From Gemmatimonadales bacterium (GTDB taxonomy: Bacteria; Gemmatimonadota; Gemmatimonadetes; Gemmatimonadales; GWC2-71-9): DNA of 47,499 nt. Position 1 is the first letter of the stretch, and every line of letters begins with the position of its first letter. Below the pieces are notes generated by a model. That model was not told where the DNA came from. It did no database searches and saw only the letters and a program-made list of their open reading frames with translations. The stretch is taken from positions 1 to 47,499 of the forward strand of contig JBFGLJ010000002.1 of NCBI GenBank assembly GCA_041576235.1, in the 5' to 3' direction. The translations under genes were made by a program, and so were the position numbers. Below are positions 9,963-17,489 of the stretch, piece by piece.

Positions 9963-10072
9963 TCACGAGACCAGTGTTGGTGCTAGAACGATTGCTCGCG
10001 CGTAGGTTTGCGTCGCCCAACTGATGCCCCGGTCGTAACCATCAGGATCTGGATCCTGGGCCGACGGCAAGG

Positions 10073-10432
10073 ATGGGAGACTTTAAGCAACTGAAGGCCT
10101 GGCGGAAGGCGCACCAGCTCGTCCTAGCTGTCTACCAGGCAACAGCTAAGTTCCCTCATGAGGAGCGGTATGGGCTCCGGGGTCAACTGCGTAGAGCGGC
10201 GGCCTCGGTCCCAGCCAATATCGCTGAAGGATGTGGCCGCCGTGGAGACGGAGACTTGTGCCGATTCTTAGGTATTGCCTTGGGATCTGCTGCAGAGCTA
10301 GAGTATCACTGTTACCTGGCCCGAGTTTTGGGGCTTCTCACCGGAGATGTTGCACAGCGATTGATGGACGACTCCATTGAGGTTCAGAAGATGTTGGCCT
10401 CGTTTATCCGGTTTCTGAGGCGAGCTAGATGA
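10073..10432 (+). CDS. four-helix-bundle protein (23S rRNA intervening-sequence protein / Avd family)
   Basis: Family signature RGQLRRAAASVPANIAEGCGRR...FLGIALGSAAELEYHCYLA, 119 aa, lower GC than flanks. Confidence 0.9.
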   Translation: MGDFKQLKAWRKAHQLVLAVYQATAKFPHEERYGLRGQLRRAAASVPANIAEGCGRRGDGDLCRFLGIALGSAAELEYHCYLARVLGLLTGDVAQRLMDDSIEVQKMLASFIRFLRRAR

Positions 10433-10451
10433 TTGCAATGCCCTTGAATGA

Positions 10452-10535
10452 AGTCTTAAGTCTCTAGTCTGTAGTCTCATGTCTCAGGTCTCACGACTAG
10501 TCCTCACGTCTCACGACTCATGTCTCAGGACTCCA
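10452..10535 (-). repeat. heptamer tract 3: about 12 degenerate 7-bp units in inverse orientation (AGTCTCA / CGACTCA type)
   Basis: 7-bp periodicity read directly: agtctta agtctct agtctgt agtctca tgtctca ggtctca cgactag tcctcac gtctcac gactcat gtctcag gactcca. This is the reverse complement of the GAGTCGT/GAGACNT units. Confidence 0.8.
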
Positions 10536-10539
10536 CTCC

Positions 10540-10794
10540 ATGATGAAACTCTCCCTCACCCGTGACATGGTCGACGCGCTGGATGACGCCGTCGACAAGC
10601 CCGACTGGCTCATCGCCGAGGTGGAGCGGATGAAGACCTCCGGCGAGCCCTACGAGCTGACCTTGATACCCGAGCAGAGCACGGCGCTCGAGGAGCTGTG
10701 CACCATGAACATCCGCTTCGACGCCGAGGGCAATGTGAGGGCCGAGCACATGGCGCTCGAGGAATTGTCGAATCTGGTGATGGAGAATTACTAG
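10540..10794 (+). CDS. small acidic hypothetical protein (84 aa)
   Basis: ORF bracketed by inverted heptamer tracts 3 and 4. No recognisable motif; composition is coding-like. Confidence 0.5.
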   Translation: MMKLSLTRDMVDALDDAVDKPDWLIAEVERMKTSGEPYELTLIPEQSTALEELCTMNIRFDAEGNVRAEHMALEELSNLVMENY

Positions 10795-10796
10795 AA

Positions 10797-10845
10797 GACT
10801 TGAGACTTGAGTCGTGAGTCGAGAGTCTGCGGTCATCAGTCGTCG
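10797..10845 (+). repeat. heptamer tract 4: GACTTGA GACTTGA GTCGTGA GTCGAGA GTCTGCG GTCATCA GTCGTCG
   Basis: 7 tandem 7-bp units starting 3 nt after the stop of the 84-aa ORF. Confidence 0.75.
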
Positions 10846-11125
10846 GGCGGCGGTCTGCAGTTCCCGGTTTGAGCCTCTTGGCACTTGGCAACACCTCGTA
10901 TACGAAGTGACTCCTCGGGCCCACTTCCCGTCCCGTTCACCCACCCGCATTAGGGTGCGGTTTCCGCAGTCATCCTCCCCGCAGGCTACTTGCAAGGGCA
11001 ATCCCTAAACGTGATGGCGGGGGGGCGTATGAATGCAGGCTGGCCGGCCGTTCTGGCTGATATATGGCAGGACTGGCAGGATCGGCTCATTTTTCTGCAG
11101 TCTAGTACTCGTTAGGCGGCGTCAC

Positions 11126-11653
11126 GTGAAGCGCGATATCTACCCATTACTCCCGGTCATTGCGGCAACCCTCGCCCTCTTCTGGATCGTACCTGGCGTA
11201 CCCTTCGCTCATTTGGACGATCCCAGCTACTGGGGAGTGATAGGCTATGGATTGACACTCGTGGTGGTCGTCACCCGCGTGCTCGGGCGCCGATCAGATG
11301 CGTCCGAACGCCGGTGGTTGATCGGCTTCCTGGTGGGGATGCCGTTGATATACATAGCGGCTTGGCTGCGCTTTGGTGGCGCTGCTTCCTGGTTGGCGAT
11401 CGAGTTCGTGGGGCTTGTCCTCTTCTCTGGCATCGCATGGCTGTCAGTTCGCCGATCGGTGTGGTTCTTACCGTCAGGCATCGCTTTGCATGCGTTGTGG
11501 GACGCCGGACATTACGGAATAGCGGAATTCATCCCAAACTGGTACGTCGTGGGCTGTATCGTTGCAGACGTCGCCCTAGGCCTATACATCGCCGGTCGCC
11601 TGTCCGGACTCGCGTTGGTTGCGACTCGAAGCTCCCCGCGGGACGCCGTCTAA
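11126..11653 (+). CDS. cassette ORF: integral membrane protein, unknown function
   Basis: GTG at 11126 lies 9 nt after the GTTAGGC box. About 5 predicted TM helices. The TAA stop lies inside the GTCTAAC box. Confidence 0.6.
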   Translation: MKRDIYPLLPVIAATLALFWIVPGVPFAHLDDPSYWGVIGYGLTLVVVVTRVLGRRSDASERRWLIGFLVGMPLIYIAAWLRFGGAASWLAIEFVGLVLFSGIAWLSVRRSVWFLPSGIALHALWDAGHYGIAEFIPNWYVVGCIVADVALGLYIAGRLSGLALVATRSSPRDAV

Positions 11654-11808
11654 CCAGCAAATGCACCTGACGGGGCGCGCACGCCGGTAAGGAATACAGC
11701 GTTTGTGCGGCGGCCTATGATAGTGCACGTTAAAGTGACTGATACCCGGCCTGCGGCCGGTCTCGCCAACGGGTGGGTCGCCCGCAGGTGATTTGCAGGC
11801 CGTTAGGC
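11648..11808 (+). other. attC-like recombination site A (161 bp)
   Basis: The 5' arm GTCTAAC-CA-GCAAAT-G-CACCTG pairs with the 3' arm CAGGTG-ATTTGC-AGGCC-GTTAGGC. There is one bulged G. Confidence 0.7.
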
Positions 11809-11880
11809 AGCAGCGCTACGGTTCAGAGGACCAACGCGAGGGCCGGCAGGGTCCAGATTTGGGAGGTGTCCGCGACAGCA

Positions 11881-12333
11881 ATGGATGGCCAAATTAGGAC
11901 AGCGCAGGAGATACGTAGAACCTCCGACAACAAATTGGCAGGTATTGTCCGGTTGCTACTGGCCGTGCTTTTTCTGATGACTGGTGCTATGAAGCTTGTG
12001 GTGCCAATGCTTGCCGAGGCCTGGTCCGGACAACTGCTCGCTGCGGACCTACCGCTTTCCACGTTAAGTCGCTGGACCGTTCCGTTTCTCGAGATTTTCC
12101 TAGGTATCGCTCTTGCTATCGGCGTATTTGTTCGCCCGGCGGTTATTGTGGTCATAGGCGTTATGATCGTCGCGACGTACGTTCATCTAGTCGTTGACGA
12201 TCCGACGCTGTTCCCGCTGCAGCCCACCGAGCCGATCATTCCGCTCATCGTGATTGTGATGGGTGTCTACCTTCTATGGCGCGGGGGAGGGGCTTGGAGT
12301 GGGGATCTGAGAGCGACGGGGACTGCTGTCTAA
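11881..12333 (+). CDS. cassette ORF: DoxX-family membrane protein
   Basis: GGGAGG SD-like sequence 13 nt upstream of ATG 11881. LAGIVRLLLAVLFLMTGAMKL DoxX-like N-terminus, 4 TM helices. The TAA stop lies inside the GTCTAAC box. Confidence 0.65.
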   Translation: MDGQIRTAQEIRRTSDNKLAGIVRLLLAVLFLMTGAMKLVVPMLAEAWSGQLLAADLPLSTLSRWTVPFLEIFLGIALAIGVFVRPAVIVVIGVMIVATYVHLVVDDPTLFPLQPTEPIIPLIVIVMGVYLLWRGGGAWSGDLRATGTAV

Positions 12334-12466
12334 CCGGCGTTTGCACCTGACGCGGGCGCCGCTCGATGTACGGCCTTAGATCTTCTTGAGGCGAGTTCCG
12401 TGGCCGGGCCGCTCCCGCAGACGGGCGCGGACGCTGCCGCGCAGGTGAAACGCAGATCCGTTAGGC
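12328..12466 (+). other. attC-like recombination site B (139 bp)
   Basis: The 5' arm GTCTAAC-CG-GCGTTT-G-CACCTG pairs with the 3' arm CAGGTG-AAACGC-AGATCC-GTTAGGC. Same architecture and bulge as site A, with compensatory changes. Confidence 0.7.
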
Positions 12467-12489
12467 GCCAACTTTAACAGGATCGTGCC

Positions 12490-13050
12490 GTGTGGTTGGT
12501 CTGGACTGTAACGGCGGCTTCAGCAGTAGTGGCTACCTCCTGCGTAATCCTACTTCGGGACGACTGGAGGGTGGCACCGAGGGGCTGGCAGTGCCTTGCC
12601 GGCTCCGGCGTGGCACTCGCGCTGGGGGGGCTCGGCTTCATCATCCGTTTCTGGCAGCCTCTTCCGGGCCCTTACATCGCAAACGAACTCTATCCATTGG
12701 GCCCATATGTGAACGCGTGGGCGGTGTCATTCGGTTTCATGTGGCTCGCCTACGGTCTGGCGTTCGTGACGTTGGCGCTGCGAGGCCAGCGGTCTTTCAA
12801 GATCTGGCTGGCGATGATTGCGACCTGGATTCTGGCGTGGCTCCCTCACGCCATCATCGTGCTCGGCTTTCTGACGGCGGGTGAGAACGAGCGAAGCCTG
12901 GAGCTTTACCGCGGCTGGGCAGCGGAGTGGCGCGGCCTACTTGCCCTCTCGGTTAGCGGCCTGATTCTCGTCGGGCACCTTGGGCTGAGCCTAGCGGGGT
13001 TCGTTCTCACGGGTCGAGCACTGCTGCGAGATAACAAGACTCCTGCCTAA
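12490..13050 (+). CDS. cassette ORF: integral membrane protein, unknown function
   Basis: GTG start 24 nt after the GTTAGGC box. About 5-6 TM helices. The TAA stop lies inside the GCCTAAC box (13045-13051). Confidence 0.6.
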   Translation: MWLVWTVTAASAVVATSCVILLRDDWRVAPRGWQCLAGSGVALALGGLGFIIRFWQPLPGPYIANELYPLGPYVNAWAVSFGFMWLAYGLAFVTLALRGQRSFKIWLAMIATWILAWLPHAIIVLGFLTAGENERSLELYRGWAAEWRGLLALSVSGLILVGHLGLSLAGFVLTGRALLRDNKTPA

Positions 13051-13174
13051 CAGGCCGTCAGTCCCTCGACGACGGTGCACATGAAGGCGTTCGCTCTTCC
13101 ACCAATGGCCTCGTACGGCACGATCTATCGTTGCTGCGTTGGAAACTTCCCTCACACACAGGAGGGTCCGAGCA

Positions 13175-13348
13175 ATGGCCCGGTCTTCCGTCGGACTCGA
13201 AGCGGTGTTGTCGGTCATAACATTGGCGGCCTGTGGAGCGGAGCAGGCTGAGGAATCGCGGGCGACGGGCGAGCTTGCGGCTCCTGCCGGCAACCAAGGA
13301 ACTTCGGTGCAACGGATACGAGCCTACACTGTGCTATGCCGGCCATGA
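13175..13348 (+). CDS. small putative lipoprotein (57 aa)
   Basis: AGGAGG at 13160-13165, 9 nt before ATG 13175. Signal peptide plus lipobox MARSSVGLEAVLSVITLAAC. Confidence 0.45.
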   Translation: MARSSVGLEAVLSVITLAACGAEQAEESRATGELAAPAGNQGTSVQRIRAYTVLCRP

Positions 13349-13357
13349 TTCGTTTGG

Positions 13358-13388
13358 CGCCCGCAGCAGAATAACAGATCCGTTAGGC
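13358..13388 (+). other. attC-like 3' half-site (L'-R'): GCGCCCGCAGCAGAATAACAGATCC-GTTAGGC
   Basis: Aligns with the 3' arms of sites A and B (..CGC(C)CGCAG....AG(G/A)(C/T)CC-GTTAGGC). I could not find a convincing 5' partner. Confidence 0.45.
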
Positions 13389-13420
13389 TGCGTGGAATGT
13401 GACAGCCACGGCCGTTCGCG

Positions 13421-13849
13421 TTGCTCGTGCACGCTCTGACACCGAGCGTCGAACTGAAGGTGGCGCCCAAGGCGTTTCGATTCTCCTGCCGCGGCCGGGT
13501 CGAGTCAATCGCCCCGGTCCTCTACCTCACCGGGTCAGGCGCCAACCAGCGCGTTTCCGCTGTCGGTGATTCTGCTGCGCCACCCGGACCCTACACGAGA
13601 GTTGCGTTCCTCCAGGCTTCCGCAGAGCTTGAGCTTCCCATTTCGCGCACCGATGCACTAGAAGCTTTCCTCCGCTACGCACTCGCCAAGGTTTTCAAGC
13701 GCACCTTCCTTGTGCGCCCCACGGTCTTCGTCAGTGGCATCGAATCGATCGCGGGTACCTTCGGTGGGACCGAGGCTCGTGTCCTCGAGGATGCCCTCCT
13801 GTCTGTTGGCGCGCATAGGGTCGTGTTCTTCCCGTTGCGCGCCACCTAA
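13421..13849 (+). CDS. cassette ORF: hypothetical soluble protein (142 aa)
   Basis: TTG start 33 nt after the GTTAGGC box. The stop TAA sits in ACCTAAT, immediately followed by ACTC-GTTAGGT. No motif recognised. Confidence 0.5.
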   Translation: MLVHALTPSVELKVAPKAFRFSCRGRVESIAPVLYLTGSGANQRVSAVGDSAAPPGPYTRVAFLQASAELELPISRTDALEAFLRYALAKVFKRTFLVRPTVFVSGIESIAGTFGGTEARVLEDALLSVGAHRVVFFPLRAT

Positions 13850-14019
13850 TACTCGTTAGGTCCACCGGACCCACTCTTCAACAGAGTGATGCTGCAATCC
13901 GCATGGCGGGCCTCCATCGCGTCGCTCGGCCTCTCAAGCGTAGGCTCCTCGCCAGCATGAGGGTCTTCCCGAGCTCCGCGCAGTCCGATCCCCAGCGGGG
14001 TTCCGCTGCCGATCCGGGT

Positions 14020-14127
14020 CCCTAACCGCCGTCTCCGGTGGACGGGCCTTGCAGCGGTCAGCAGAAATCGTTGATTTCGCTAAGGGTGTACTACGATGGC
14101 CCGCCACCGACATGGAACCCGTTAGGC
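14020..14127 (+). other. attC-like recombination site E (108 bp)
   Basis: The 5' arm CCCTAAC-CGCCGTCTC-CGGTGG-A-CGGGCC pairs with the 3' arm GGCCCG-CCACCG-ACATGGAACCC-GTTAGGC. One bulged base; a different sequence family from A and B. Confidence 0.6.
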
Positions 14128-14156
14128 CAGACAGGAGTCTCACGTGACGAACCCGA

Positions 14157-14354
14157 ATGAATAAACAGCCGCAGGACAACGACGACCGCAAGGCGATCTA
14201 CATAGGAGTGTGTGTCGGCATCGGCATCGCGATGGGCGCAGCATTTGGAGCAGCGATGGGCAGTGTCGGCGTGGGGATCGCGTTCGGAATCGCGCTCGGT
14301 GCGGCGATTGGCGCAGCAATTTCACTTTTCATCGACAAGGACGGTGCCAGCTAG
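14157..14354 (+). CDS. glycine-zipper small membrane protein (65 aa)
   Basis: Starts 30 nt after the GTTAGGC box. Consecutive GxxxG/AxxxG repeats (GIAMGAAFGAAMGSVGVGIAFGIALGAAIGAAI). Confidence 0.6.
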   Translation: MNKQPQDNDDRKAIYIGVCVGIGIAMGAAFGAAMGSVGVGIAFGIALGAAIGAAISLFIDKDGAS

Positions 14355-14620
14355 CACGGGCTCCTGCTGTCGTGCCGTGCGGCAGCATCATCGAGTTGCG
14401 CCTTCGAGCTTGGCGCGGCAGCGTTCATGGGTACTGCTCACTGTTGGCCACGCAACAGACCCCAATTCGCTAGTCGAAGACGTCGGAGGTCCGATGCGGT
14501 GACACCCCAACTGACGTACCCTCCCAAACAGTAGACGAACAACGTATCCCAAGCAGGCAGCGGCCATTCGTGGTGTTCACACAGTCCCTCAAGCCAAGAC
14601 ACTCACACCAGGACCGAACC

Positions 14621-15328
14621 ATGGGCGAGAATCGCATCATCTTCGTGCAGGGATCGTTAGATGACGTCAACAGGCAACTACCGGCGTCCGAGGAAGCCGC
14701 AAGGGACGATCCGAGCGGCATGGTGGATGCCGCCGTAGATCGTGCGCGGCAAATGACGTCCCGCGCCGTCAACCAGATTGATGCCATCTGGAGGGTAAGC
14801 AACAAGAAGGCTGCCCTCGAGTCGGCCTGGAAGGATAACGCAGCGTTCTGTGCCTATTTCGGGATCGACCACGTCAAGAAGAGACAAATCCGCGCATTAC
14901 GTCGCCGTCTGCTGAAGGTCAACCAGTGGATCGGAAGGGGACTCAAGATCAAGGTGCGCCCCGCGAATGGCCCCCGCTCCGGAAGATGCAAGAAGGGGGG
15001 CGCCGGCTTCAATAACCGCGGAAAGTTCGGTAAACGGTGGATAAACCTGTGCCCTGTCTGGTTCGGGGTGGCCAAGAAATGGGAAATCCCCCCGGACGAT
15101 CGCAGGGCGTCGATCGTTGCGCATGAAGTCGCGCACTCCCTCGCCGATATCACAGGGTTCGGTCTCTGGACCGTCGACTTGCCGAAAGGCGGTCCGAAGC
15201 GCGGCCCAAAGGAGGCGCGGGAATTCGCCAGGACAAACCCGAAGAGGGCACGGCACAATCCGGAGAACTTCGAGCACGCCCTCTTAGCGCTCATGCACCC
15301 CGATCACGTCACTGCGGAAGACGACTAA
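14621..15328 (+). CDS. putative HExxH zinc metallopeptidase-like protein
   Basis: Internal ATG at 14621. HEVAH motif followed by TVD...GG and NPENFEH, loosely reminiscent of the aspzincin/M35 layout. Lys/Arg-rich; last gene of the low-GC island. Confidence 0.55.
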   Translation: MGENRIIFVQGSLDDVNRQLPASEEAARDDPSGMVDAAVDRARQMTSRAVNQIDAIWRVSNKKAALESAWKDNAAFCAYFGIDHVKKRQIRALRRRLLKVNQWIGRGLKIKVRPANGPRSGRCKKGGAGFNNRGKFGKRWINLCPVWFGVAKKWEIPPDDRRASIVAHEVAHSLADITGFGLWTVDLPKGGPKRGPKEAREFARTNPKRARHNPENFEHALLALMHPDHVTAEDD

Positions 15329-15332
15329 GAGC

Positions 15333-15367
15333 GAGGTGAGCGGCACGGTCACGACACCGCTCATCTC
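15333..15367. terminator. hairpin between convergent genes (GAGGTGAGCGG - 13 nt loop - CCGCTCATCTC)
   Basis: 10 of 11 bp stem read directly, no U-tract. The right arm overlaps the stop of the permease gene by 2 nt (15366-15367). Marks the right edge of the low-GC island. Confidence 0.45.
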
Positions 15368-17489
15368 AGCTCGCCGTGTACCGGTCTCGCAGCAGCCGCA
15401 GCGCATCGGGCTCGCCGATGACGGTGACCAGATCGTTTTCCCTCAGCACGTCGCGCCGGCCGGGCACGATGATGTCGTTCCCGCGACGGACAATGGCAAC
15501 CAGTGAATTCTCCGGCAGCTCCAGGTCCTGAATCGCCTTCCCGATGAACTCGGCCGTGCGGTCGCTCGAGCGCAGGCGAACGGTCTGGTAGCGGGTCTCC
15601 TCGAGCAGCAGCTCCTTCAGGTGGGCCGCGTTGCGAGCCTGCAACCAATCTTCGATGAAGTGCTCCTCGTCGACACGGTTGGCGAGCTGCGCGAGCATGC
15701 GAAGATGCTGCCCGTGGTCTTCTTCGGGACTGACCAGGAGGAAGATGGCGTGGACGCGGTGGGCCACGTCCTCCTCGCCGCCGATAGCATCGATGACGTC
15801 CATCAGGAGGCCCGCGCGCGATCGCGCCAGCACCATCTCCGGCCGCTCGATGCCGAGCACATGGAGGTGCGGCAGGGCGGCCCCACGCGCCACCGGGGTC
15901 GCGCCGGTCTTGGTGCCCTGCAGGAAGCCCTGCTCCAGCTTGGCCGCGGGAACCGGCAGCCGCGTCGCCAGCTGGTGCGCCGCCTTCGACACGAGCTCCT
16001 CGAACGATTCCCCTTCGTCTAACTCGATCACCTGCGCCCGGGCCACGACCTCGTCGAACTGATCGTCGGACCGGAGTCCCTTCTCCTTCAAGATCGTCCG
16101 GAATTCGCGGTCGAGATCGTCATATTGGCGCTGCCCGAGCCGCCTGAACCAGTGATAGATGGCGCCGTCGCGGACGACGTTCGGCCGGGCATACCACAGA
16201 TACCACACCAGGCACACCAGCACCACGCCCAGTGTGAACAGAATGGCCAGCCAGCCCATGTACACGATCAGGATGAACGACGCCAGAATCCCCGCGACCT
16301 GCATCCACGGATAGAGGGGAGACCGGTAGCCGGGGTCGTAGGACGGGATCCGGCTCTCGCGCATCACGATTACGGCCAGATTGACCAGCATGAAAATGAA
16401 GAGCTGGAAGGCACTGGCGAGTTTGGCGAGGCCTTCCTCGTCGAGGACGAGAATAAAGACAACGATGAGCACGCCGGTAAAGACGATCGCGAACGACGGT
16501 GTGCGAAACCGCCCCAATCGGCTGAACACATTGGGCAGCAAGCGGTCGCGCGCCATGGCCAGCGGATACCGCGATGCGGAAAGCACGCCCGCGTTCCCGG
16601 TGGACGCGAACGCCGCGAGCGCGGCGGCCACGATGAGCGCCAACCCGAGCGGCTTCGGCAACCACGTGAAGAAGGCCTCCGCGGCCGTCGCCACCGGCGT
16701 CAGGTCGGCGTGGAACGCACCCGGCTCGAGCACCGCGACCATCACGAACACGCCGGTCACATAGATGATGGACGTGGACGCGAGCGAGAGGATCATCCCG
16801 AGAGGGATGTTGCGCTCGGGGTTGGTCACCTCTTCCGCCACGCTGGCCACCTTGGTCAACCCGGCGTAGGACACGAACACGAACCCGACCGTCGCGAGCA
16901 GGCCCTCCACGCCGAACGGCGCGAACGGCGTGAAGCGCTCGCGAGTCACCGACCTCGGCTGGTCGAAGATGATCTCGTGAAACCCCTGCAGAATGAAGAA
17001 GACGGTCACACTCAGCAGGATCACGACAAACCAGCGCTGCAGCCCGCTGGTCTCCTTCGCCCCGATGATGTTGATGCCGACAAACACGACGGTGAGTGCT
17101 ACCGCAATCGGCTTGATCGGCAGTTCAACGAAGAGCGCCGAGTAGGCGCCGATGCCGACGAGGGCGAAGGCGGTCTTGAGCGAGAGGGCCAGATAGGTGC
17201 CGAGCCCCCCGATGGTGCCGAACATCGGCCCCAGACTTCGGTCGAGGAAGTAATAGGTCCCGCCGGCCCGGGGCAGCGCCGTACTCAGCTCCGCCTTGCT
17301 GAACATGGCGGGCAGGATGAGAATGCCGGCGATCAGGTAGGCGAGTACGACGGTCGGTCCGGCCTTGGCCGCCGCCAGCCCGGGCAACAGAAAGAACCCG
17401 GAGCTGAACATCGCGCCGGTGCAAATGGCGTAGACGTCGAAAAGCCCCAGTTCTTTCTTGAGCCGATGCTCTTTTCGAAGGATAGGCAT
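15366..17489 (-). CDS. APC-superfamily amino acid permease fused to PTS-EIIA(type 2)-like and TrkA-C domains
   Basis: N-terminal 12-TM permease (GLFDVYAICTGAMFSSGFFLLPG). C-terminal ARGAALPHLHV EIIA-like segment and RCK_C-like IGKAIQDLELPENSLVAIVRRGNDIIVPGRRDVLRENDLVTVIG. Confidence 0.88.
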   Translation of the reverse strand: MPILRKEHRLKKELGLFDVYAICTGAMFSSGFFLLPGLAAAKAGPTVVLAYLIAGILILPAMFSKAELSTALPRAGGTYYFLDRSLGPMFGTIGGLGTYLALSLKTAFALVGIGAYSALFVELPIKPIAVALTVVFVGINIIGAKETSGLQRWFVVILLSVTVFFILQGFHEIIFDQPRSVTRERFTPFAPFGVEGLLATVGFVFVSYAGLTKVASVAEEVTNPERNIPLGMILSLASTSIIYVTGVFVMVAVLEPGAFHADLTPVATAAEAFFTWLPKPLGLALIVAAALAAFASTGNAGVLSASRYPLAMARDRLLPNVFSRLGRFRTPSFAIVFTGVLIVVFILVLDEEGLAKLASAFQLFIFMLVNLAVIVMRESRIPSYDPGYRSPLYPWMQVAGILASFILIVYMGWLAILFTLGVVLVCLVWYLWYARPNVVRDGAIYHWFRRLGQRQYDDLDREFRTILKEKGLRSDDQFDEVVARAQVIELDEGESFEELVSKAAHQLATRLPVPAAKLEQGFLQGTKTGATPVARGAALPHLHVLGIERPEMVLARSRAGLLMDVIDAIGGEEDVAHRVHAIFLLVSPEEDHGQHLRMLAQLANRVDEEHFIEDWLQARNAAHLKELLLEETRYQTVRLRSSDRTAEFIGKAIQDLELPENSLVAIVRRGNDIIVPGRRDVLRENDLVTVIGEPDALRLLRDRYTAS

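Follow-up and report, generated by a model that had tools for sequence, protein, structure and literature searches.

An integron gene-cassette array with no integrase on its contig in a high-GC, Rhodothermales-like metagenome-assembled genome

Repeated core boxes of the kind that delimit integron gene cassettes cluster in a 47,499-nt stretch of DNA, apparently a whole contig, from a metagenome-assembled genome (MAG) labelled Gemmatimonadales (assembly GCA_041576235.1, contig JBFGLJ010000002.1, positions 1 to 47,499 of the forward strand, henceforth the window). The locus raises the question of whether these boxes mark a genuine cassette array and, if so, which recombinase assembled it. A first-pass annotation of the bare sequence had proposed an array with no integrase in view. 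We find that positions 11111-14475, possibly extending to 15365, are very probably an array of integron gene cassettes whose contig carries no integrase, that is, clustered attC sites that lack an integron-integrase (CALIN) as IntegronFinder defines it (class defined in PMC4889954 and PMC9024848). The array consists of six or seven small-gene units.

Direct inspection placed GTTAGGC/T core boxes at 11111, 11802, 12460, 13382, 13855 and 14121 and inverse-core boxes at 11648, 12328, 13045 and 14020, exactly where the first-pass annotation had put them. All seven GTTAGGY matches of the window fall within 11111-14127 and none elsewhere, the seventh being the reverse complement of GCCTAAC at 13045. 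The extended box CGTTAGGC is present in five copies against 0.89 expected, a count reached by none of 100 shuffles. As had been noted, the TAA stops of three open reading frames (ORFs; 11126-11653, 11881-12333 and 12490-13050) lie inside three of the inverse-core boxes. ORFs start 8-72 nt downstream of core boxes, a slight correction of the earlier 9-75 nt. The GC content is indeed low, about 0.61 in the array versus 0.67-0.68 in the flanks, but the low-GC tract is wider than had been claimed, with values of 0.58-0.61 across 10000-15365.

We scored the window with two covariance models of attC sites: R1, built from 41 metagenome sites with no window site in training, and R2, built from 150 metagenome sites, about half of them not chosen through the search motif. 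Both models return three significant matches, attC1, attC2 and attC5 (Table 1), with E-values of at most 1e-4 under a shortened calibration, all on the + strand and 0.5-1.6 kb apart. Opposite-strand scores are 13-16 bits (13-15 bits for attC1), about 50 bits below those of the + strand, as expected if the two bulges of the folded site matter. Since attC5 lacks the motif with which training sites were searched, it is an independent match. The CALIN reading is thus borne out by strand-specific matches at three of the proposed attC sites. Of the inverted repeats said to join the box pairs, those of 161, 139 and 108 nt are attC sites by covariance model, but the 344-nt pair 13045/13382 is not. In DNA folds of the bottom strands of 11645-11811, 12325-12469 and 14017-14130, the R box is paired, the short spacer next to it is unpaired and the L stem is broken by two bulged bases, both on the R''-L'' arm. 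The R and L boxes and extrahelical bases that the first-pass annotation had anticipated for 11648-11808, 12328-12466 and 14020-14127 are therefore present.

The folding energies of these sites are unexceptional (z -0.6 to -2.3), and GC-rich imperfect palindromes behind ORFs could also be ordinary elements in the gaps that separate small core genes, for instance REP-like palindromes or intrinsic terminators. We regard this explanation as already refuted and give it practically no credence. There are no T-tracts and no terminator-like sites at the attC positions, the terminator count is at chance, and so the repeats do not behave as the plain terminators that had been named as a possible refutation. 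Model scores are strongly strand-asymmetric, owing to the two bulges; more than 200 sites show conserved RYYYAAC/GTTRRRY boxes and covariation in the L stems; and the family is associated with IntI genes and shows homology breaks at G|TT (see below). A search of Rfam returned no family covering the window attC sites.

The sites belong to an attC family, TAAC-NN-GCNNNT-G-CACCTG-A-CG, found widely in metagenomes of soil and sediment; the integrases to which it is linked lie in the same orientation as their cassettes. The left-arm motif TAACNNGCNNNTGCACCTGACG, scanned against metagenomes, matched at least 120 contigs. With 17 specified bases, tens of matches could arise by chance in a collection of such size, but these did not: the three bases left unspecified ahead of TAAC make up a full RYYYAAC, a partner arm composed of CAGGTG, the variable hexamer in reverse complement and GTTRRRY lies 70-168 nt downstream in nearly all untruncated cases, and many of the contigs carry several copies at cassette spacing, with arrays that reach 5-10 sites. 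In an alignment of 41 sites (A2), pairing is canonical in 95.6% of cells, compared with 28-37% when partners are slid, and 66 changes are double-sided; covariation in L-stem 1 is partly imposed by the rule that selected the sites, and the unselected pair 27-179 also co-varies. Over its full length, attC2 is 75-83% identical to multi-copy attC sites in loci L098, L063, L161, L127 and L104, while attC1 is 78-86% identical to three attC sites of locus L189. The window sites attC1, attC2 and attC5 have arms but not loops in common, and homogeneity is seen only against arrays on other contigs. Relative to the canonical attC of aadA7, they are alike in the 7-nt R'', the 8 nt to the first bulge, the 6-bp stem, the second bulge followed by CG, the variable loop, the R' box GTTRRRY and the position of the bulges on the bottom-strand R''-L'' arm. 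They differ in their length of 108-161 nt and in a first bulge that is a bottom-strand C (top G), where aadA7 has G. On one stretch bearing the same family (L098:1-7117, on the 170-kb contig Ga0180437_10000119), nine or more attC sites, 72-77% identical to attC2, all point the same way; the stretch has the look of a large chromosomal array, with no integrase in that stretch.

Comparison with other assemblies showed that the units move. Locus L184, a 1.8-kb contig from another sample, is 40-45% identical to the window left of 12460, where its attC and its cassette are both different; at the 12460 core the two sequences are identical, and beyond it identity is 80-84% over 12467-12950 and 99.4-99.6% over 12951-13861. 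Likewise, L189:591-1284 matches cassette 1 at 86% DNA identity, confined to 11110-11811, and a full, different attC precedes this homologue in place of the TACTC-containing junction of the window. In both loci the homology ends precisely at the core, between G and TT, and such breaks in two independent assemblies are direct evidence of cassette shuffling. The same cassettes thus occupy different contexts with G|TT boundaries, as discrete mobile units do. The presence/absence polymorphism that the first-pass annotation had suggested looking for is seen through L189 for cassette 1 and through L184 for cassettes 3-4, each with other neighbours; the block is therefore not syntenic and invariant in relatives, the outcome that had been named as speaking against an array. 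We infer past IntI activity in this lineage, and the near-identity of cassettes 3-4 in another context argues for recent shuffling in the population. The step in identity to L184 inside the cassette 3 ORF, from 80-84% before about 12950 to 99.5% beyond, further indicates within-cassette homologous recombination besides site-specific shuffling. In three other loci (L185-L187) a homologue of cassette 1 stands among small genes arranged like cassettes; no attC of the window family was detected there, and these loci were not used as evidence. The run in L185:1-11908 (GCA_041609635.1) comprises at least 19 small same-strand genes with classic cassette functions (glyoxalase, SnoaL, cupin, NUDIX, GNAT and GDSL lipase), and it may represent an array whose attC sites are eroded or of another type.

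No tyrosine recombinase, intact or decayed, was found in the 47.5 kb by tblastn with four IntI queries (IntI1 and three IntI proteins from metagenomes), by a six-frame scan for catalytic motifs or by an IntI profile HMM, and no tyrosine recombinase family is among the top 25 of the 74 Pfam families listed for 72 window ORFs. Four methods thus agree with the absence claimed earlier. No intI with the IntI-specific additional domain adjoins the array, as it would in a complete integron, and a sigma-70 consensus scan for a Pc promoter was empty on the + strand near 11000-11130, a consensus that may not be the host's. IntI genes do adjoin arrays of the same attC family on L099, L069, L129, L174 and L138, and the IntI homologues of L099, L069, L174 and L138 carry the IntI-specific insertion. 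In related loci intI lies upstream and co-oriented with the cassettes, with the first junction 190-222 nt past the intI stop, an arrangement that we take to be that of the 'inverted' integron group, as in Treponema denticola. The five loci share both the attC family and the co-oriented upstream intI, whereas the window lacks intI. The recombinase of L075, 33% identical to IntI1, was not counted as an integron integrase; it stands beside an IS91-type transposase-like ORF.

We propose that each unit is one promoterless same-strand ORF followed by an attC. The bottom strand of an attC folds so that the spacer between R box and L stem stays unpaired and two bases of the L stem are extrahelical, and an IntI tyrosine recombinase cuts it between G and TT. 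The array would have been built and shuffled by IntI in the lineage through recombination of attC with attC and of attC with attI (or attG). The platform is now incomplete and partly decayed, with three intact-looking attC sites, one without the AAC/GTT triplets, a half-site and an early nonsense codon. Presumably it is inactive or dependent on an integrase in trans, and further rearrangement would need IntI from elsewhere in the genome. A different account holds that the array is no fossil and that it forms the cassette part of an active sedentary chromosomal integron whose integrase, on another contig, acts in trans. The three attC sites are structurally intact, the window is one 47.5-kb contig of the MAG, and the 99.5% identity of cassettes 3-4 to L184 behind another upstream neighbour implies that recombination took place recently in the population. 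Set against this are the signs of decay (the lost triplets of attC6, the half-sites at 13045 and 13382 and the nonsense codon of unit 4), the shortness of the array at 6-7 cassettes and the lack of an attI-intI platform within 11 kb upstream, where related integrons carry intI. We consider activity in trans possible but lean towards a partly decayed CALIN.

The sequence 14349-14475 (attC6), outside the coordinates of the first-pass annotation, is a decayed attC that closes a sixth cassette, to judge from its sequence. It scores 12-15 bits (E 0.16-0.36, R1 and R2) and aligns over its full length with a 54-bit attC at L154:10289-10417. Its R'' reads AGCTAGC (14349-14355) and its R' GCTAGTC (14469-14475), so that AAC/GTT has become AGC/GCT in a complementary fashion. 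The paired changes, TAAC to TAGC and GTTA to GCTA, keep the R-box pairing and remove the conserved cleavage triplet; their complementarity could be due to chance or to gene conversion. Further left, the 13382 box belongs to an L'-R' half-site (13356-13388): CCGCAGCAGAATAACAGATCC, in front of the box, resembles the L'-R' arm of the family, and there is no matching left arm; visual comparison shows the right arm CCGCAGCAGAATAACAGATCCGTTAGGC to be similar to the CAGCAG-type arm of the L184 attC. The GCCTAAC at 13045 is an R'' without partner. Two ways of completing a site here were tried and rejected. Taken as one long attC, 13045-13388 (344 nt) has non-complementary arms, matches neither R1 nor R2 and folds into separate local hairpins, and the inverted repeat 13362-13378/13563-13579 has the wrong box order for an attC on the opposite strand.

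Two boxes are of another kind. The 13855 box lies within a perfect 6-6-6 palindrome, ACCTAA TACTCG TTAGGT (13844-13861), at a place where an attC is expected; a strong hairpin (13807-13844, z = -4.4) lies upstream of it, and in the models the box yields a bare R-box pair only (8.7 bits, R1). The leftmost box, at 11111, reads GTCTAG TACTCG TTAGGC and gave no attC match with R1 or R2 and no structure in the fold. The two share CTAxTACTCGTTAGG at 14 of 15 bases. Between positions 11094-11111 and the junction next to intI in L099, 14 of 18 bases agree; this similarity is short, and attI sites are integrase-specific. L099 alone among 177 loci has a TACTYGTTAGR. Ahead of GTTA, the junctions of L069, L174 and L138 are AT-rich, like the TACTC boxes of the window, while attC-type junctions of the family are GC-rich. 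A scan of viral contigs for the TACTC junction gave six matches, which we judged likely to be chance.

The left boundary (11094-11117) may be a double-strand site of attI or attG type; an attI origin has modest support and is offered as a hypothesis. The attG alternative would mean that the array was never linked to an integrase: cassettes would have been seeded into a genomic double-strand site by attC x attG recombination, with TACTCG|TT at 11111 as the target, and would then have grown or been copied. IntI inserts cassettes at double-strand secondary sites, and this has been proposed as the origin of small CALINs (preprint 10.1101/2022.09.11.507474); moreover, no intI pseudogene is detectable upstream, and the left junction lacks an attC and looks like a short double-strand core. 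We nevertheless think such seeding rather improbable, for a single genomic target leaves the recurrence of the TACTC junction at 13844-13861 unexplained, the CAGTCTAGTACTC|GTTAGG junction resembles that of L099 next to intI, and the low-GC tract reaches 1.1 kb further left. Still more speculatively, and in our view unlikely, both CTAxTACTCG|TTAGG junctions (11100-11117 and 13844-13861) would be double-strand attI-type cores of a lost integrase, or a fusion point of two platforms. If this were so, unit 13383-13855 would be a module with crossover points on both sides, in which an attI-like core replaces the folded attC, and either such a module or a two-platform fusion would fall outside the standard integron model.

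How firmly can the array be called a CALIN? Several points weigh against this assignment. Three of the six boxes (11111, 13382 and 13855) close no recognisable attC, so that the earlier view of the boxes as attC closures stands at three of them, where a functional-looking attC is present. The attC calls rest on our own covariance models, not on the attC model and intI HMM of IntegronFinder. The left-arm scores are circular in part, since training sites were collected with a motif from attC1 and attC2; attC5 and the right arms do not depend on that motif. Finally, the absence of an integrase holds for the 11 kb left of the array and the 33 kb right of it, and other contigs of the MAG could carry one. 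On the other side, a CALIN requires at least two attC sites clustered within 4 kb in one orientation, and the window has three plus a decayed one; these have the attC architecture (RYYYAAC/GTTRRRY, two extrahelical bottom-strand bases, variable central loop), and no integrase lies within 4 kb. The array resembles known CALINs in its clustered co-oriented attC sites, its one ORF per cassette, the absence of a nearby intI and its typical size, with no essential difference; it adds two non-attC core junctions that standard annotation would ignore. RefSeq holds thousands of CALINs with a mean of about 6 attC sites each (PMC9024848). With large sedentary chromosomal integrons the locus shares a housekeeping-gene context, cargo mostly of unknown function and attC sites similar to those of related arrays. 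It differs from them in having no intI, confirmed attI or Pc, in signs of decay, and in 6-7 units where such integrons have tens to hundreds, and more than about 10-20 cassettes with homogeneous attC sites would be expected. The general biology of CALINs is already established, and the array is an ordinary, confirmatory case and no new kind of element. It adds a verified cassette array with between-sample shuffling to a lineage with few described integrons (high-GC, Rhodothermales-like, from sand); integrons are already on record for both groups that come into question as host, Rhodothermales-like bacteria and Gemmatimonadota, in Salinibacter ruber M1 (complete) and Gemmatirosa kalamazoonesis (large arrays) (PMC9024848).

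Table 1. Units, attC sites and boundaries of the cassette array (window coordinates).
Feature	Position	Strand	Basis
Left boundary junction CAGTCTAGTACTC|GTTAGGC	11094..11117	+	Core box without attC behind it
Cassette 1: ORF 11126-11653 + attC1 11648-11808	11112..11802	+	Covariance model; L189 homology
attC1	11648-11808	+	R1 61.9, R2 60.5 bits; E 2e-15/4e-13
Cassette 2: ORF 11881-12333 + attC2 12328-12466	11803..12460	+	Covariance model; Pfam DoxX
attC2	12328-12466	+	R1 65.2 bits, R2 63.7 bits
Cassette 3 (possibly two fused)	12461..13382	+	Orphan R'' at 13045; half-site 13356-13388
Unit 4: ORF 13421-13849, hairpin, 6-6-6 palindrome	13383..13855	+	Bare R-box pair
Cassette 5 (266 bp): ORF 13903-14025 + attC5 14020-14127	13856..14121	+	Covariance model
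attC5	14020-14127	+	R1 24.6, R2 27.9 bits; E about 1e-4
Cassette 6: ORF 14157-14354 + decayed attC6 14349-14475	14122..14475	+	L154 homology
Terminal low-GC segment (possible member): orphan ORF 14570/14621-15328	14476..15365	+	Strand and composition

The cargo is typical of environmental cassettes, with small membrane proteins, a DoxX protein and orphans, and has no obvious applied relevance. Cassette 1 encodes a multi-pass membrane protein of 175 residues with 13 homologues and no Pfam family; its start codon is GTG at 11126 in the window and ATG in L189, and its TAA stop is inside R'' of attC1. The 150-residue product of cassette 2 belongs to the DoxX family of membrane proteins (Pfam E 1.5e-10), so that the earlier description of the cargo as entirely uncharacterised was overstated. 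Cassette 3 encodes a membrane protein of 186 residues without Pfam family (12490-13050) and, in a second ORF (13175-13348), a 57-residue product with a lipoprotein-like signal. The 142-residue product of unit 4 has a single homologue, P0001 on L184, to which it is 99% identical. The homologous 150-residue gene of L184 opens with ATG CGA, whereas in the window the ATG at 13397 is followed by TGA. With this nonsense codon in second place, the unit 4 gene is either truncated to a TTG restart at 13421 or a pseudogene. Cassette 5 has room for an ORF of at most 40 residues, and cassette 6 encodes a glycine-zipper-like membrane peptide of 65 residues whose TAG stop falls inside R''. In the terminal segment (GC 0.60), the orphan ORF of 235-252 residues contains an HExxH-like motif and has no Pfam family and no homologue besides itself. 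The segment gave no attC match with R1 or R2 and abuts the 3' end of a permease gene, and it is from strand and composition that it possibly belongs to the array.

That permease gene (15366-17489) encodes a 707-residue amino-acid permease/TrkA-C protein and shows 82-83% DNA identity to genes of L001 and L002, from two MAGs assigned to different phyla (Gemmatimonadales and Rhodothermales) whose flanking genes are not common to the window; mis-binning or horizontal gene transfer could account for this pattern. The permease is closest to Rhodothermales/Rhodothermia MAGs, with a single best match labelled Gemmatimonadales, and the host appears to be a Rhodothermales-like, high-GC MAG. Among 57 related permease loci none has a neighbouring gene in common with the window, which makes this synteny comparison uninformative about presence or absence of the array.

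To the left of the array, a gene of the 23S_rRNA_IVP family (10073-10432, 119 residues, Pfam E 2.5e-36), predicted to encode a four-helix bundle, lies in the low-GC tract, and together with an 84-residue ORF (10540-10794, no Pfam family) it occupies the position where related integrons carry intI. The 23S_rRNA_IVP family presumably includes the Avd accessory proteins of diversity-generating retroelements. Directly upstream of the 84-residue ORF are about 12 tandem heptamers AGTCTCN (10441-10533), and about five inverted copies follow directly downstream (10796-10827); heptamer arrays in inverted orientation thus flank the ORF on either side, within the low-GC tract that adjoins the cassettes on the left.

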